In this document: positions 5,908 through 42,032 of the stretch, one piece after another
Position numbering within the stretch: the first letter of the stretch is position 1
Layout: every line of letters starts with the position of its first letter
From: Candidatus Nomurabacteria bacterium
GTDB lineage: Bacteria > Patescibacteriota > Minisyncoccia > Phycocordibacterales > SBAW01
Assembly: GCA_943349945.1 (NCBI GenBank)
Contig: CALQZS010000001.1
Location: forward strand, 130,803-194,802
DNA length: 64,000 nt
Direction: 5' to 3'
Program-made: the position numbers and the translations under genes
Notes under the pieces: generated by a model
What the model saw: only the letters and a program-made list of their open reading frames with translations
The model's database searches: none
Told to the model about the DNA's origin: nothing

Positions 5908-6975
5908 TTATAACAGCCGCTCAAGGGTCTTTGGATTCCAACTAAGGTTGTATGCGCTCTCGACTGTTATCTCGCCTGCACGCACAAGTTCTGCAAGAGA
6001 GCGGTTCATGTCTATCATACCCTCTTCGGCACCGGTCTCTATCACCGTCTGGAGTTCGTGCGTGCGCTTTTCTCGGATAAGGTTGGCGACTGCGTTGTTG
6101 TTTATAAGCAGCTCGCACGCAGGCACCAGCCCGCCAGAAATGCGCGGCACCAAACGCTGCGAAAAGATACCTGCCAACGACCCCGCCAGCTGGATACGAA
6201 TTTGGTCTTGTTGCCCCGCGGGGAACGAGTCGATGATGCGGTCGATGGTTTGTGCTGCGTTGTTGGTGTGGAGTGTTGAAAACACCAAGTGCCCCGTCTC
6301 GGCGGCAGTTACGGCTGTGGCCATGGTCTCGGGCGTGCGCATCTCACCTATCATCAACACGTTTGCATCCTGACGAAACACCGAGCGCAGCGCCGAGTCA
6401 AAGTCGGCCGTGTCCACACGAACCTCGCGCTGGTCTATGAGTGACTTTTTATTTTCGAACAAGTATTCAATAGGGTCTTCTATGGTGACAATATGCTCGG
6501 TACGTTCGGTGTTTATCTTCTCGAGCAATGCAGCAAGTGTCGTAGTTTTACCCATACCCACCGGCCCCACCACCAAAAAGAACCCCTGTTTGCGTGACGC
6601 AAACGTCTCCAAAATTGGAGGCAACCCAAGCTCGCTGAGCGAGCGTATTACCTTGGGGATAAGACGCAGCGCCACGGCGACGTGCCCGCGCTCGACAAAC
6701 CCGTTGCCACGGAAGCGCGTTTTTTCTTGGTGCGAGTAGGAAAAGTCTATTTCTTGTGTCTCTAAAAAGCGTTTTTTGTGCTCGGGGCTCAACATCTCCG
6801 ATAACAGGCCGATAATTTCGTCGTTCGTTAAGACCGACTCAGACAAAATAGGTGTCAGCGCACCCGACACACGTATGATGGGTTGTGCACCCACAGACAA
6901 GTGCAAGTCCGAAGCACCTTGCGCGACCAACAAATCAACCAACTCTGCTACTTTCTTTTTAAAATCAGTTATCAT
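5908..6975 (-). CDS. pilT: Twitching motility retraction ATPase
   Basis: 355 aa with Walker A GPVGMGKTTT, and TIEDPIEY and STLHTN motifs typical of PilT. Confidence 0.9.
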   Translation of the reverse strand: MITDFKKKVAELVDLLVAQGASDLHLSVGAQPIIRVSGALTPILSESVLTNDEIIGLLSEMLSPEHKKRFLETQEIDFSYSHQEKTRFRGNGFVERGHVAVALRLIPKVIRSLSELGLPPILETFASRKQGFFLVVGPVGMGKTTTLAALLEKINTERTEHIVTIEDPIEYLFENKKSLIDQREVRVDTADFDSALRSVFRQDANVLMIGEMRTPETMATAVTAAETGHLVFSTLHTNNAAQTIDRIIDSFPAGQQDQIRIQLAGSLAGIFSQRLVPRISGGLVPACELLINNNAVANLIREKRTHELQTVIETGAEEGMIDMNRSLAELVRAGEITVESAYNLSWNPKTLERLL

Positions 6976-22627: not shown

Positions 22628-22714
22628 CGGAGAGAGCGAGATTCGAACTCGCGGGCCCAATTAAGGGCCGACAGTTTAGTAAACTGTTGATTTAAACCAC
22701 TCATCCATCTCTCC
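22628..22714 (-). tRNA. Type II tRNA-Ser; anticodon reads ACU by hand folding
   Basis: Fold: GGAGAGA-TG-GAT-GAGTGGTTTAA-ATC-A-ACAGT-TTACTAA-ACTGT-C-GGCCC-TTAATT-GGGCC-C-GCGAG-TTCGAAT-CTCGC-TCTCTCC-G. It has a long variable arm and a G73 discriminator. Confidence 0.8.
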
Positions 22715-22926: not shown

Positions 22927-23011
22927 GGAGACGTGTCAGAGTGGTCGAATGTGCCTCCTTGCTAAGGAGGTAGGGCGCAAGCCCTCGTGGGTTCGAATCC
23001 CACCGTCTCCG
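22927..23011 (+). tRNA. tRNA-Ser (GCU)
   Basis: Acceptor GGAGACG...CGTCTCC, anticodon arm CCTCC-TTGCTAA-GGAGG, long variable arm, T arm GTGGG-TTCGAAT-CCCAC. Confidence 0.9.
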
Positions 23012-31637: not shown

Positions 31638-31712
31638 ATATAGAGACGGATGAGAGCCTCTACTCTTTCATCGCCTACCTATTCTACCCTATACAACCCG
31701 TACACTAGACGC

Positions 31713-31745
31713 AAAAACACCACCCCTAAACAGGGTGGTGTTTTT
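31713..31745 (-). terminator. Terminator (bidirectional shape) closing the orphan minus-strand unit
   Basis: On minus: AAAAA-CACCACCC-tgtttag-GGGTGGTG-TTTTT. Confidence 0.8.
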
Positions 31746-31865
31746 AAACATCCATAGGGCCACGAGCCATGCACAGTGGTTAGAGGAGAGAGTTTTTTGC
31801 TCCGTCTTGGCTAGTGCAATTTGGAGCTTCTCACACAGCGTGACTCATGACCCTATAGAGATTTT

Positions 31866-31920
31866 TACCTTTTCGTCCTTTTGGACTCATCAGCCCGGGC
31901 ACACACCCGAGGAAAGTCGG
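31866..31920 (-). ncRNA. Type III hammerhead self-cleaving ribozyme motif
   Basis: Minus strand: CCGACUUUC^CUCGGG-UGUGUG-CCCGGG-CUGAUGA-GUCC-AAAA-GGAC-GAAA-AGGUA. The full conserved core is present, and helices I, II and III are all formable. Confidence 0.8.
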
Positions 31921-32009
31921 ACGACACGCAGCGTTGTTGCGCCGTGTCGCCCGTTAGCCCCGGACTAGCCGGGGCGGCCGGGGATGATTTTGCGGTAATC
32001 ATCCTGTTG

Positions 32010-32402
32010 TTAGGTGCCGCATATAGCGGCCACGAACTGCTTCGCAAGTTCTTGGCGATTCAGTTCTGACGCCCGATCGTCGCTGGGGACGCACGGGGAC
32101 TTAGTTAACCCGTACGCCAAAGAAGCGTAACTCACCGCCATCGACGGATTGTAACCGCCCCAAAAGCGAGCGGCCTCAGCCGCTGCCAGAACGGCGAACT
32201 TCTTCGCCGCCTGTGAGTCCTCAATGGACACATCGAATGGTCGGTCAGCGTGACCGAAAACCCCAAAAAGGGCCCTTTCGATTTCATAGAGTACCCGCTC
32301 TGAAATCTCTCCACCCACTATCATCCATTGGACGACCTGTGGGTTGGGCATCCACAGCCCAGCGACAACAAGCGCTGCCATTCGCGCATGTACTATTGTC
32401 AT
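32010..32402 (-). CDS. Hypothetical 130-aa protein (orphan)
   Basis: GGAG RBS 7 nt upstream of the ATG; no recognisable motif. Sits between the structured leader and the hammerhead. Confidence 0.55.
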   Translation of the reverse strand: MTIVHARMAALVVAGLWMPNPQVVQWMIVGGEISERVLYEIERALFGVFGHADRPFDVSIEDSQAAKKFAVLAAAEAARFWGGYNPSMAVSYASLAYGLTKSPCVPSDDRASELNRQELAKQFVAAICGT

Positions 32403-32767
32403 TTTACTCTCCGTTTTTTTGAGCGTTGGATTTTGCCAACGCTCGGGTTTAGAACATCAGGGTGCAATTTCTTGCGATCCCTCTTGCCGCACCGAGCATT
32501 AGAGTGCATCCATCTGCACTAGGCAGACAGGCTCATGACTCGGTAAGGCGAAGAGGAACAACAAAGGTGATCTTTCGATCGTTTGTTATTTCCCGACGCC
32601 AATATTTGGGTCGGGATCCCGACTTTGCGGGATCTATTCGCTATTCTTTTGTCAAAGAATGTCTCTCTTTCGAGAGAAGTCGGATGGCAAAATGGGCCAA
32701 ATATAAAAGATGTGCCTTTTGCCGTCCGGCTTCTCCCTACGACTCTCTCCTCTAAGAGGTAATCGTT
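32403..32767 (-). ncRNA. Unclassified, highly structured leader RNA of about 365 nt
   Basis: At least seven hand-verified hairpins, for example 32662-32677, 32643-32660, 32615-32634, 32682-32727, 32479-32556, 32561-32586 and 32421-32444. No credible ORF. Confidence 0.5.
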
Positions 32768-32773
32768 AAACCC

Positions 32774-32802
32774 ATTATACCCCCTTATTCCGAGTTTGTC
32801 AA
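32774..32802 (-). promoter_or_regulatory. Consensus sigma-70 promoter TTGACA-17 nt-TATAAT
   Basis: Minus strand ttgacaaactcggaataagggggtataat; both hexamers are perfect and the spacer is 17 nt. Confidence 0.75.
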
Positions 32803-32889
32803 GTAGTTCGAGGCGCTCATAACCAAACAGGCAAAATAGCCCTATACATAAGGCTTTTTAGGCACTCTAGAGCCTGCCTTGCTTTGTAG

Positions 32890-34056
32890 CTACCGCACAG
32901 CCTTTGCAACCGCCTCCATGACCCCTTTGTCGAAGGGCCCAGGGATTATTTTGTCTGCCGTAGGCTTTTTGACCAGCGCAGCCAAGTTGTGGGCGGCAGC
33001 CAACTTCATCTTGTCGGTGATTTTGGTGACCTTGTGGTCGAGCGCTCCGCGGAAGATGCCGGGGAATGCTAGCGAATTGTTGATTTGGTTTGGGAAGTCG
33101 CTCCGCCCTGTGGCCACCACAGCTGCCCCTCCCCGCATAGCATCGCCCGGCATAATTTCGGGAGTCGGGTTGGCAAGCCCAAAAACAATCGCACGCGGTG
33201 CCATCATTTGCACGTGCCGCGCCTGCATCAGCCCCGGGCCAGAAACCCCCACCACAGCGTCCGCCCCCGCAAGCGCATCTTCTAAACCTCCCTGTATCTT
33301 GCGTGGGTTTGTGTGTTTGGCCAGCGCCTGCTTGTGCGGCTCGTTACTATTCACCGTGATGATTCCTTTACTGTCGAGGACGATTACATCTTTAACACCC
33401 GCCAAGAGCAGCAGCTTGGTTACGGCGGTGCCTGCAGCACCCGCGCCAGCCACTACTACTTTTAATTTCTTTAGATCTTTCTTTACCACCTTTGCTGCGT
33501 TAATGAGCGCTGCGAGCACCACAATTGCTGTGCCGTGCTGGTCGTCGTGCATCACGGGGATGTTGAGCGCCGCCTTTACCCTGTCTTCTATCTCAAAACA
33601 ATTGGGCGCAGTAAAGTCTTCGAGGTTGATGCCACCGAATGCGGGCGCAATGCGCACAATAGTCTCGACAATCTCGTCGACGTTTTGTGTATCGAGCACA
33701 ATCGGGAATGCGTCTACGTCTGCAAACGACTTAAACAGCGCAGCCTTACCCTCCATAACCGGCAGCGCACCATAGGGCCCGATGTTGCCCAACCCCAACA
33801 CTGCCGAGCCGTCGGAGATAACCGCGACCATGCGTTTTTTTATTGTGTATTCTTTTGCGAGCGTCTCTTGTTTTTTTGTTGGGTGGAGTTTGCCTTTAGT
33901 GCCCGCGACAAGTGTCGACACCGCCGCCACGCCCGGCGTGTATACCAAACTCAAGTCGTCTCTGTTTGTAACGGGCGCTGCTGCCTGGATGCGAATTTTA
34001 CCCCCGAGTTTTTTGTGTAATGCAATTGCCTTTGCTGCGGTGTCGTTTTTTGCCAT
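32890..34056 (-). CDS. NAD(P)-dependent malic enzyme (short form)
   Basis: VYTPGVA, VISDGSAVLGLGNIG and GAGAAG Rossmann motifs. The start at 34056 avoids overlap with recG. Confidence 0.85.
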   Translation of the reverse strand: MAKNDTAAKAIALHKKLGGKIRIQAAAPVTNRDDLSLVYTPGVAAVSTLVAGTKGKLHPTKKQETLAKEYTIKKRMVAVISDGSAVLGLGNIGPYGALPVMEGKAALFKSFADVDAFPIVLDTQNVDEIVETIVRIAPAFGGINLEDFTAPNCFEIEDRVKAALNIPVMHDDQHGTAIVVLAALINAAKVVKKDLKKLKVVVAGAGAAGTAVTKLLLLAGVKDVIVLDSKGIITVNSNEPHKQALAKHTNPRKIQGGLEDALAGADAVVGVSGPGLMQARHVQMMAPRAIVFGLANPTPEIMPGDAMRGGAAVVATGRSDFPNQINNSLAFPGIFRGALDHKVTKITDKMKLAAAHNLAALVKKPTADKIIPGPFDKGVMEAVAKAVR

Positions 34057-36531: not shown

Positions 36532-36603
36532 TGGGCGCGGCAGGGATTGAACCTGCGACCAGTCGTGTATAAGACGACCGCTCTACCACTGAGCTACGCG
36601 CCC
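36532..36603 (-). tRNA. tRNA-Ile with UAU anticodon
   Basis: Fold: GGGCGCG-TA-GCTC-AGTGGTA-GAGC-G-GTCGT-CTTATAC-ACGAC-TGGTC-GCAGG-TTCAATC-CCTGC-CGCGCCC-A. Confidence 0.85.
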
Positions 36604-41652: not shown

Positions 41653-42018
41653 GGGGATGCCAGGCCTAGACAATGAAGACGCCTGTTGAATGCGCGCAGT
41701 AGAAGTCTGGACCTTCTTAAAAATCCGGAAACAATAACTGCAAAAAACAGTGTTTCGCCGTATTTCGCGGCGAACGACTTCCAGTTCGCGTTCGCGCGAG
41801 CGTAAGTCGCATCTACCCTTCCTCTCTCTTGCGGGTTGGGATAGGTGTTATATAGCAAGAGTATAGTTGCAAGAGCCGCTCTGACTTGCATCCGAACATA
41901 AGAGCTGCAGGAAGTTATGATTTCGTTTGCTTTGCCCATAACAGCCTAAAGAAACAACAAGCGAACTACACTACGTAGAAGCTTCAGCAGCACTTCATTG
42001 CACGGCGGTTCAATTCCG
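41653..42018 (+). ncRNA. ssrA: tmRNA
   Basis: The 5' GGGGATG pairs with the 3' CATCTCC, including G3:U. T arm GGCGG-TTCAATT-CCGCC. Internal tag ORF GCA AAA AAC ... GCG TAA. Downstream of smpB. Confidence 0.85.
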
Positions 42019-42032
42019 CCCATCTCCACATA

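Follow-up and report, generated by a model that had tools for sequence, protein, structure and literature searches.

In a 64,000-nt stretch of DNA from a Candidatus Nomurabacteria bacterium (contig CALQZS010000001.1, positions 130,803 to 194,802), referred to as "the window" in this study, a perfect sigma-70 promoter (TTGACA-17-TATAAT, 12 of 12 matches) is followed directly on its 3' side by a fold-rich stretch. A preliminary description placed this stretch at 32403-32767 and took it for a 5' leader RNA of unknown class, possibly a riboswitch, a large noncoding RNA or a ribozyme. The question raised by this locus is what kind of RNA the promoter produces, and whether that RNA belongs to the gene behind it.

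Layout of the transcript

The transcription start is predicted near 32767. From there, the leader is followed by one or more variable gene cassettes, then by a type III hammerhead or a hairpin unit, and finally by the conserved trailer and a terminator. The features assigned are as follows (window coordinates):

32838-32855: intrinsic terminator of the upstream malic-enzyme gene
32774-32802, minus strand: sigma-70 promoter, kept in relatives
32459-32768, minus strand: leader proper, a non-coding RNA of ~310 nt, kept in ten distinct sequences
32739-32766, minus strand: 5' hairpin H1, ACGAUU/AGUCGU plus CUCU/AGAG, apical UAGAGG
32742-32755, minus strand: GA-rich, Shine-Dalgarno-like 14-mer UUAGAGGAGAGAGU, within H1
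32672-32737, minus strand: long irregular hairpin H2, GGGAGAAG/CUUCUCUC, CGGA/UCCG and GGCAAAA/UUUUGCC, with the conserved apical loop GGCACAU..UAUAUUUGG
32662-32677, minus strand: hairpin UCUCUC-GAAA-GAGAGA, kept in 9 of 9 aligned leaders with changed loops
32647-32657, minus strand: conserved sequence CUUUGACAAAA, within 32643-32660
32592-32634, minus strand: variable insert with two hairpins, unique to this genome
32561-32586, minus strand: hairpin H3a, AACAAA..UUUGUU with GAUC-GAAA-GAUC; relatives have a hairpin of other sequence there
32479-32563, minus strand: invariant pyrimidine tract UGUUGUUCCUC, followed by the Y domain, which has the base stem UCCUCUU-C-GCC/GGC-AAGAGGG, a further stem ACCGAG/CUCGGU and, at the apex, the hairpin CUGUCUGC/GCAGAUGG
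32464-32475, minus strand: small closing hairpin GCAA-GAAA-UUGC, with the cassette junction 3' of it
32459/32458, minus strand: leader/cassette junction, ..CCC/UGAUG
32403-32458, minus strand: 5' UTR of the 130-aa gene cassette, containing the hairpin 32421-32444, a run of A and, at 32407-32412, the RBS GGAGAG
32010-32402, minus strand: cassette gene for a 130-aa protein, four homologue clusters, no family match
31920-31952, minus strand: GC-rich hairpin 5' of the hammerhead
31865-31919, minus strand: type III hammerhead ribozyme with full catalytic core, predicted cleavage between 31912 and 31911
31712-31864, minus strand: conserved structured trailer, ~150 nt, ending in an intrinsic terminator (31713-31745)
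31780-31793, minus strand: trailer element ACUCUCUCCUCUAA, complement of the leader 14-mer

The stretch first proposed as leader is thus correct for ~32459-32768 but not for 32403-32458. The latter (~56 nt) travels with the 130-aa gene in other genomes and is that cassette's own 5' UTR; it shows one compensatory change, C-G to U-A, in L004. A terminator search of the window's leader yielded none that was convincing, with one weak 6-bp candidate flagged, and no convincing terminator or platform that sequesters the RBS is linked to the leader in the window, the RBS being located in the separate cassette UTR. An internal TTGACA (within CUUUGACAAAA) was considered as a promoter -35 box and rejected, as no -10 element lies 3' of it.

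Among the relatives, a single promoter drives arrays of up to ~5 kb that are rich in strong GC hairpins, some with U-rich tails; in L004, there is only one promoter to an array. We infer from these sequences that the ~310-nt leader is the first module of one long single-promoter transcript with interchangeable small genes. The gene that comes first after the leader belongs to the 130-aa family in the window and L001, encodes a 149-aa nuclease-like protein in L002, L006 and L031, a protein of 116 aa in L004 and proteins of 43, 63 and 40 aa in L025, L028 and L030, and encodes an unrelated protein of 129 aa in L033. The same leader thus stands before at least seven unrelated first genes, none of which has an annotation, and does not depend on which gene comes next. 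A leader specific to its gene in the riboswitch sense, one of the initial suggestions, does not agree with this, nor with the lack of a convincing linked expression platform in this genome.

Pfam, PHROGs and PADLOC gave no significant match for eight cassette proteins; a PDB sequence search with the 130-aa family gave no match; and no relatives were found in viral contigs. The AlphaFold model of the 130-aa protein was unusable (pLDDT 51). The possibility that the whole 1.07 kb is one ncRNA with a spurious 130-aa ORF was considered and rejected. The RNA of this ORF is itself structured (z = -5.8), and the ORF is coding, as third codon positions differ about twice as often as the first two and blocks of the protein are conserved.

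Structure and conservation of the leader

The minimum free energy of 32403-32770 on the minus strand was -141.4 kcal/mol, compared to -95.0 +/- 5.3 for 100 dinucleotide shuffles (z = -8.8, 0 of 100 as good), and the leader of one relative also folded better than its shuffles (z = -6.1). The shuffled-sequence control therefore leaves the claim of a structured RNA standing. The reverse strand folds equally well (z = -8.8). It is the promoter that settles the strand, together with the direction of the genes and the G.U pairs that are conserved; energy does not.

All eight helices listed in the preliminary description were found when they were read on the minus-strand transcript and their pairs were checked by script. 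Helix 32717-32727/32682-32692 forms 10 of 11 pairs, with one C.A mismatch, and every pair is formed in 32672-32677/32662-32667 (6 of 6, GAAA loop), 32654-32660/32643-32649 (7 of 7), 32628-32634/32615-32621 (7 of 7), 32610-32615/32592-32597 (6 of 6) and 32436-32444/32421-32429 (9 of 9); 32561-32586 holds the nested GAUC-GAAA-GAUC, and for 32479-32556 the fold is a long hairpin with branches, at -37.6 kcal/mol.

Homologous leaders were found in ten distinct sequences at one common site, which has RecG/malic enzyme on one side and an ECF sigma operon on the other, and another relative, L040, has an empty, cassette-free site with neither leader nor trailer. The motif order is the same in every array: loop, CUUUGACAAAA, UGUUGUUCCUC, then trailer. 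An exact-pattern scan for the 5' block of the leader added one locus among genome contigs (L006), and its matches at 13 metagenome-contig loci and one viral-contig locus all proved on inspection to be unrelated chance matches. Within the reach of these scans, the leader is narrowly distributed, in a small group of ultra-small Patescibacteria. Leader sequences are 75-85% identical and trailers 86-93%, compared to 59-70% at third codon positions of the flanking genes; both are conserved beyond the synonymous sites of their neighbours.

In several helices, substitutions among the relatives preserve the pairing. The inner stem of H1 appears as C-G, A-U or G.U; the compensatory changes in H2 include G-C to U-A and A-U to C-G exchanges; the hairpin 32662-32677 has a U-A to C-G change in L028; and at H3a the outer stem alternates between GCAG/CUGC and GCGU/ACGC, with the inner hairpins swapped. 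RNAalifold gave double changes in 5 of 19 and 6 of 19 pairs, although these counts reflect few independent substitution events, as the ten sequences come from two or three clades. The Y domain had a covariation score of 0.259 versus 0.108 in shuffles (0 of 500 as high), the score lying above all 500 shuffles and all slid controls for structures that were derived from those very sequences. Strand-specific G.U pairs are conserved as well: 9 of 9 sequences have a U.G pair in the base stem of the Y domain, and H2b keeps a G.U pair.

Some of the helices described earlier hold only in part. Within the Y domain, the base stem and the CCGAG/CUCGG stem stand, but the third arm, AGUGCA/UGCACU, is lost in relatives, and the alternative CUGUCUGC/GCAGAUGG (32510-32530) fills their hairpin-forming columns. 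Similarly, the AUUCUUU/AAAGAAU hairpin at 32643-32660 pairs fully in this genome but has support only from close relatives; elsewhere, only the sequence CUUUGACAAAA is kept. The 5' arm of the hairpin 32662-32677 overlaps the 3' arm of H2, so that these two pairings are mutually exclusive.

The leader structure is real and under selection, and it fits no described RNA family. With Rfam 15, the whole window gave only tmRNA and three tRNAs at the gathering threshold, and a search of 32300-32900 at E <= 10 gave only chance-level sRNA/miRNA matches of 17-20 bits. None of its families matches the leader, including T-box, cobalamin, twister and pistol (for which the preliminary description had likewise seen no resemblance), hatchet, OLE, ROOL, GOLLD, raiA and put/EAR. 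As in OLE, ROOL, GOLLD, raiA and HEARO, there are several hundred nucleotides, many helices and GNRA loops. Unlike those RNAs, the leader has no covariance-model match, it is joined as a 5' leader to coding sequence instead of forming a free-standing gene, and it is represented by about ten sequences from one narrow lineage. The original view of a functional structured RNA of no known class is thus borne out, and homologous regions do carry the compensatory changes whose lack would have spoken against it.

The hammerhead, the hairpin units and the trailer

The earlier expectation that a ribozyme might accompany the leader agrees with the type III hammerhead ~490 nt beyond the 3' end of the stretch first described. 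It matched RF00008 with 31 bits and E = 7.8e-5 in a 421-nt search, which is below the gathering score of 48.5, and the alignment has every core position (CUGAUGA ... GAA, the A15.1-U16.1 pair and the cleavage-site C17); stem III has 5 pairs only. In the window, stem I reads CUCGG/CCGGG; L001 has CUCGG/CCGAG instead and L033 has CUCAAA/UUUGAG, and stem II is longer in L001, L002 and L031. By these alignments (L001, L002, L031 and L033), the three helices are maintained through compatible changes, and the element is a type III hammerhead for which self-cleavage is predicted.

Relatives L021-L024 carry three to four hammerheads in a row, and in L004 a hairpin unit sits where the hammerhead stands in the window. 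Such units carry the conserved sequence CUUUUNAAGCNCUUCA and are near-identical repeats within one genome; the cassette content of close relatives differs exactly at their boundaries. Rfam searches at gathering and at permissive thresholds, which covered leader and trailer as well as related loci and one hairpin unit of 126 nt, gave no match other than sub-threshold hammerheads. A ribozyme-like internal loop in the units was also considered and rejected, as its 'AAG' pairs with 'UUU' to give a continuous 11-bp stem.

The trailer contains a perfect 14-nt complement to the leader element UUAGAGGAGAGAGU, for which the chance expectation is 0.01. This complementarity is present in all A-type loci, extends over 13 nt in L033, and has a core, UUAGAGG/CCUCUAA, in every array checked. 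The duplex between the 5' hairpin and the trailer was calculated at about -25 kcal/mol versus -17 +/- 3 when the trailers were shuffled. For three B-type loci, RNAduplex gave no better result than with shuffled trailers, so that the long-range pairing is statistically supported only in the A-type loci and L033; as UUAGAGG and CCUCUAA never vary, the 5'-3' interaction has no support from covariation. GA-rich and CU-rich tracts are of low complexity and pair promiscuously.

B-type leaders have an intrinsic terminator inserted directly after the 5' hairpin and upstream of most of the leader structure; L025, L028, L030 and L033 carry a leader terminator, whereas neither the window nor any other A-type leader has one. 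Pairing of the 5' hairpin with the terminator arm amounts to -16 to -22 kcal/mol, and the terminator hairpins alone to -13 to -19 kcal/mol.

Possible functions of the leader

Our first choice, advanced tentatively, is that the leader may work in cis as the 5' module of a polycistronic RNA that undergoes processing, and that this module governs 5'-3' closure as well as read-through and stability. Read from sequence, the steps would be that: the leader acts in cis, on the very transcript that carries it; the 5' hairpin may serve as a pairing hub, either folding locally or pairing with CU-rich partners; in this genome the partner would be the trailer, closing the RNA 5' to 3'; in B-type relatives it would be the 5' arm of the terminator that follows the hairpin, giving a read-through switch; the long hairpins 3' of the hub may protect the 5' end from decay; the Y hairpin, which shares its base stem with the inter-cassette hairpin units and is located at the leader/cassette junction, is a putative site at which the leader is separated from the coding part; and hammerhead cleavage between 31912 and 31911 would remove the trailer from the mRNA, covalently uncoupling the 5'-3' lock. 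As the window's leader has no internal terminator, attenuator logic cannot apply to the window.

Several parts of this cis-acting module have counterparts in other systems. The early RNA of phage T7 has intercistronic hairpins processed by RNase III, and rRNA operons have leader-trailer processing stems. Here too, long irregular hairpins stand between cistrons of one transcript and the two ends of the unit pair. However, the 5'-3' duplex is only 14 bp, cleavage is putative, and the conserved CUUUUNAAGCNCUUCA of the units goes beyond the needs of a generic double-stranded substrate. In hok mRNA of type I toxin-antitoxin systems, the 5' end pairs with the 3' end (the tac/fbi fold-back), and the 3' partner is trimmed exonucleolytically. 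The 5' end would similarly be freed here by removal of its 3' partner, via hammerhead cleavage, although no antisense promoter or RNA gene and no toxin-like (small hydrophobic) ORF was identified, the ORFs are variable and the leader is far larger. STAB-SD elements are 5' mRNA stabilisers of Gram-positive bacteria, for example of cryIIIA. The leader resembles them in the invariant Shine-Dalgarno-like AGGAG within UAGAGGAGAG, ~25 nt from the predicted 5' end, with no start codon after AGGAG in most leaders; it differs in that the element is part of a hairpin and that conserved partners complementary to it lie in the same transcript, ribosome binding being hypothetical.

Clustered hammerheads that flank variable genes have been described before, and processing of long transcripts was proposed for them (Perreault et al. 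2011, PMC3088659). As in those prophage-type clusters, type III hammerheads are found here between or behind small genes of inconstant identity in one long transcript, which in the published case would be cut into gene-length RNAs (PMC3088659). In contrast to them, neither phage genes nor an integrase were seen at the present loci, there is only one hammerhead in the window, and some arrays have a long hairpin that is not ribozyme-like in the ribozyme position; a mutually complementary ~310-nt leader and ~150-nt trailer framing the array are not described in PMC3088659. A literature search on hammerheads with Patescibacteria/CPR found nothing relevant.

A possible but unlikely alternative to the cis-acting module is that leader and trailer are halves of a stand-alone ncRNA, or two pairing RNAs, freed by the hammerhead and by putative cleavage at the Y and unit hairpins, and acting in trans or as a protein-binding scaffold, with the genes as passengers within an ncRNA gene. 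This is consistent with the constancy of both halves while the genes between them change, with their conservation above that of the ORF and their 14-nt complementarity, and with the positions of the hammerhead, exactly between ORF and trailer, and of a structured unit, exactly between leader and first cassette. However, no locus was found in which the leader is directly joined to the trailer, as L040, the only cassette-free relative, lacks both; cleavage at the 3' end of the leader is putative; and a housekeeping ncRNA would hardly be distributed so narrowly.

That the leader is a riboswitch, or another ligand- or protein-sensing element setting expression of the whole array, seems very unlikely. 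Its size would suit such an element, and so would its architecture of many helices, its GNRA loops and the unpaired stretches that do not vary, for example CUUUGACAAAA and UGUUGUUCCUC, as would the mutually exclusive pairings of CUUCUCUC and, in B-type relatives, the terminator with a possible antiterminator. Against these points, no Rfam riboswitch matched; the downstream genes, rather than being functionally coherent, are mutually unrelated and without metabolic annotation; the B-type terminator precedes most of the structure; and in the window the leader offers neither a convincing terminator nor a platform that sequesters the RBS. The combination that defines an attenuator, a leader terminator with a mutually exclusive upstream pairing, is likewise absent from the window, the terminator being present in L025, L028, L030 and L033.

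Processive antitermination RNAs, such as put of phage HK022 and the EAR element, offer another model, in which RNA polymerase would be modified to read through the hairpins of the array. One promoter serving arrays of up to ~5 kb full of strong GC hairpins, some with U-rich tails, a promoter-proximal leader independent of gene content, and a genuine terminator in B-type leaders that needs read-through all speak for it. Nevertheless, we find it quite improbable, as there is no Rfam similarity to put or EAR, few convincing sense-strand terminators are found inside the arrays, and the window's array is a single gene with little to read through.

Finally, it is highly improbable that the 14-bp inverted repeats and hairpin units are recombination sites of a cassette-exchange or inversion system (compare integron attI/attC or an invertible segment), with RNA structure as a by-product, since, despite the exact switching of cassette content at unit boundaries in close relatives, the near-identical units within one genome, the empty site in L040, the equal folding of the reverse strand and the TTAGAGG/CCTCTAAC inverted repeat, no recombinase gene and in particular no tyrosine recombinase (IntI) was called beside the arrays in the loci fetched and examined, by inspection the units are not flanked by integron core sites and lack paired attC core sites (RYYYAAC/GTTRRRY), all loci have one orientation, the conserved G.U pairs are strand-specific, and the hammerhead and the promoter/terminator frame point to an RNA function.

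Beyond the cis-acting module, which we prefer, lies a wider scheme that we consider decidedly unlikely: an undescribed RNA-level cassette array in Patescibacteria, in which the leader and its complementary trailer would form a bipartite structured frame holding gene cassettes, each bounded by a hammerhead or by a unit of a conserved P1 hairpin and a long hairpin; the unit would either cleave itself, as a new motif of that kind, or provide a dedicated site for a nuclease, and the leader would license expression or processing of the cassettes.

If these findings hold, the leader would represent a new family of large, conserved and structured RNAs from the Candidate Phyla Radiation, whose RNA biology has hardly been studied by experiment. 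What role hammerheads play in bacterial DNA genomes has been an open question since 2011; as one syntenic site presents the same frame with differing genes, with a hammerhead or a hairpin unit, and with an empty site in relatives, that question becomes directly testable here. If the 5'-3' pairing and the ribozyme-triggered release are real, they would provide a compact, protein-independent gate for a whole operon.

Leader fold and extent

The RNA under study is a structured leader on the minus strand, with a transcription start predicted from sequence near 32767.

Features of the locus (window coordinates)
32802-32774, minus strand: sigma-70 promoter TTGACA-17-TATAAT, a perfect match, after the intrinsic terminator of the upstream malic-enzyme gene
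32459-32768, minus strand: leader
32010-32402, minus strand: 130-aa ORF, RBS GGAGAG
31865-31919, minus strand: type III hammerhead, complete catalytic core (RF00008, 31 bits, E = 7.8e-5, under the gathering score)
after the hammerhead, minus strand: conserved trailer
31713-31745, minus strand: strong terminator

No conserved ORF lies between the predicted start (~32767) and the ATG at 32402. The minimum free energy of 32403-32770(-) was -141.4 kcal/mol, compared with -95.0 +/- 5.3 kcal/mol for dinucleotide shuffles (z = -8.8), so that the shuffling control proposed in the preliminary description left the real fold far stronger. As the reverse strand of this region folds equally well (z = -8.8), the orientation rests on the promoter, gene direction, the terminal terminator and strand-specific G.U pairs. 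All eight helices listed in the preliminary description were recovered in place. Of its elements, helix 32643-32660 is unsupported outside A-type leaders (one of two leader kinds, A and B), the AGUGCA/UGCACU arm of the Y domain is not supported, and the helices at 32592-32634 are present in this genome only. Rfam 15 gave nothing for the leader region at the gathering threshold or at E <= 10, in agreement with the earlier failure to assign a class. The feature is genuine, and its RNA family has not been described before.

The first gene after the leader belongs to the 130-aa family in the window and in one related locus, L001, and encodes a 149-aa protein in L002, L006 and L031, a 116-aa protein in L004 and an unrelated 129-aa protein in L033; the first ORFs in L025, L028 and L030 (43, 63 and 40 aa, respectively) are unrelated. 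The leader is not tied to any one gene. The homologue of the 130-aa ORF in L002 and L004 comes 2-3 genes later in the array, and the sequence in front of it is exactly the final ~56 nt of the interval first described (UGAUGUUCUAAACC, a hairpin, an A-run and the RBS). Therefore, 32403-32458 is part of the cassette, the interchangeable gene with its own 5' UTR, and the leader proper ends at 32459; the single leader originally drawn at 32403-32767 holds from 32459 upward only. Family searches with the 130-aa ORF found no match. It is coding: among four homologues, third codon positions differ about twice as often as the first two, and blocks of the protein are conserved. The RNA downstream of it is still highly structured (z = -7.9).

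Related loci, selection and covariation

Related loci were reached via homologues of the 130-aa ORF, a second cassette protein and the neighboring ECF sigma factor. Each of them has RecG/(malic enzyme) on one side and an ECF-sigma/DUF5667 operon on the other; by their source names, the sigma-factor and cassette-protein homologues point to Patescibacteria (Paceibacterota, Adlerbacteria, Kaiserbacteria), and L006 is labelled Saccharibacteria. Ten distinct leaders were recovered, A-type in the window, L001, L002 (identical to L003), L006, L031 and L004, and B-type in L025, L028 (identical to L029), L030 and L033. In every locus with a complete array the order is 5' loop, CUUUGACAAAA, UGUUGUUCCUC, cassettes and trailer CCUCUAA, each once; nine leaders carry CCUCUAAC, and L033 has CCUCUAAG instead. 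When genome, metagenome and viral collections were scanned for exact patterns, L006 was the one addition, the remaining matches being chance. The distribution of the family is narrow. In the related genome L040 (4234-5040), a single reverse-strand gene separates malic enzyme from the ECF sigma operon, and leader, cassettes and trailer are all missing; this empty site marks the array as an accessory island. In L001 (3032-3563) and L004 (1239-1770), the stretch between malic enzyme and array promoter holds a ParE-like toxin gene and its small upstream partner, a pair absent from the window. The window also carries an ordinary tmRNA gene and three tRNA genes (Rfam; 41653-42031(+), 36532-36603(-), 22628-22714(-) and 22927-23011(+)).

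Compared with three relatives, the window shows 59-70% identity at the third codon positions of malic enzyme and sigma, 75-85% in the leader (even with a swapped middle segment), 86-93% in the trailer and 92% in the hammerhead region. Compensatory changes, whose absence from homologous regions the preliminary description had set as counting against it, were seen in several helices.

Changes in leader helices
H2a: GAGAAG/CUUCUC to or from GAGAAU/AUUCUC; GAGAGU/ACUCUC in L033
H2b: CGGA/UCCG, CGGG/UCCG, CGGC/GCCG
Y base stem: U-A to or from G-C, and G-C to or from U-A
Pb: three double changes
H3a outer: GCAG/CUGC to or from GCGU/ACGC
Several apical hairpins: swapped for different hairpins

RNAalifold gave double changes in 5/19 and 6/19 pairs. 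The covariation scores, 0.259 and 0.253, exceeded shuffles (0.108 and 0.168; 0/500 as high) and all slid controls, for a set of 10 sequences from two or three clades and structures derived from the same data. A chance origin is ruled out by shuffles, conservation and covariation.

Potential pairing partners of the 5' hairpin

The leader segment UUAGAGGAGAGAGU (32742-32755), within the 5' hairpin, has a perfect 14-nt complement in the trailer, ACUCUCUCCUCUAA (31780-31793; chance expectation 0.01). The apical U(U)AGAGG of the hairpin is invariant, and the inner stem varies among C-G, A-U and G.U; the complement of the apical sequence, CCUCUAA, is invariant in all trailers and lies within a hairpin loop in B-type loci. 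The 7-nt core UUAGAGG/CCUCUAA is unchanged in every related array; A-type loci have a full 14 nt of complementarity, and L033 has 13 nt. The duplex is worth about -25 kcal/mol, compared with -17 +/- 3 kcal/mol for shuffled trailers; in L025, L028 and L030 it is no better than shuffles. In B-type leaders the 5' hairpin is immediately followed by an intrinsic terminator (L025 4433-4470; L028 5257-5295; L030 5437-5475; L033 2365-2400), which is absent from the window. In all four, the same GA-rich arm of the 5' hairpin has a second possible partner, the 5' arm and loop of this terminator (-16 to -22 kcal/mol versus -13 to -19 for the terminator hairpins); the topology is that of the classic 1:2 / 2:3 / 3:4 attenuator. 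Neither partner of these long-range pairings varies, so they allow no covariation test.

Cassette arrays, ribozymes and interpretation

In multi-gene arrays, repeated structured units, each comprising a GC hairpin, a long hairpin and a small hairpin, separate the cassettes.

Inter-cassette units (locus coordinates)
L004: 2556-2668, 3864-3948, 4400-4500, 5045-5148
L002: 3552-3668, 3872-3948
L031: 1751-1872
L025: 6333-6450, 6485-6566
L028: 7925-8022
L030: 7090-7172

The long hairpin combines an 11-bp stem (UCCCUUUUAAG/UUUAAAAGGGG) with a 2x2 loop and a distal stem that varies; it contains the conserved sequence CUUUUNAAGCNCUUCA and shows double changes in 6/16 pairs (12 copies). Rfam gave no family for the unit, even when a 126-nt stretch was searched at E <= 10. 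The leader's Y domain, at the leader-cassette junction, has a similar base stem (CCUCUU../..AAGAGGG), after which comes the small hairpin found in the units. The whole 3.4-kb array of L004 has one consensus promoter only. On the opposite strand, small unit-closing hairpins followed by a T-run (L004 3929-3944, 5130-5142 and 2645-2658) resemble terminators of antisense transcription.

The preliminary description noted that ribozymes often co-occur, and a full-core hammerhead does lie downstream of the 130-aa ORF; its cleavage site is predicted between 31912 and 31911. Its homologues in L001, L002 and L031 have a longer stem II. At the end of the L004 array, a unit occupies the exact place of the window's hammerhead, directly before the conserved trailer (..UCUCUAUAGGGUCAUGAGUCA..); ribozyme and hairpin unit are positional equivalents. 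After its main array, L033 has a second mini-unit (6370-6960) with its own TTGACA promoter, a short leader, a 105-aa gene, a GC hairpin and hammerhead, and a terminator; the hammerhead core at 6830-6885 is nearly identical to the window's. The more distant Kaiserbacteria loci (L021, L022, L023, L024) lack the leader and have non-coding arrays of 3-4 type III hammerheads (in L023, 6700-6790, 7590-7680, 8070-8160 and 8380-8470), each with a GGGGCGG..CCGCC hairpin before and AGUUCUUU after, and copy number varies between near-identical contigs. These arrays agree with the clustered hammerheads that flank variable genes, which have been suggested to cut long transcripts into gene-length RNAs (PMC3088659).

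Taken together, the comparisons demonstrate a structured RNA close to the promoter that is conserved and under selection whatever genes follow it, and that is framed with a complementary trailer and a hammerhead. We tentatively read the leader as a cis-acting 5' module. The 5' hairpin would be a hub closing the transcript onto the trailer, or, in B-type relatives, gating the early terminator instead; the long hairpins might shield the 5' end, the terminal Y hairpin could mark a processing boundary to the first cassette, and hammerhead cleavage would uncouple the trailer. A bipartite stand-alone non-coding RNA, with the genes as passengers, is a less likely account of the leader and its partner. 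It is improbable that the leader is a riboswitch or other sensor, and just as improbable that it is a processive antitermination RNA. That the conserved features are DNA-level recombination sites is more doubtful still.

The feature is best classed as a ribozyme-punctuated polycistronic RNA architecture, in a new variant with a dedicated leader-trailer frame.
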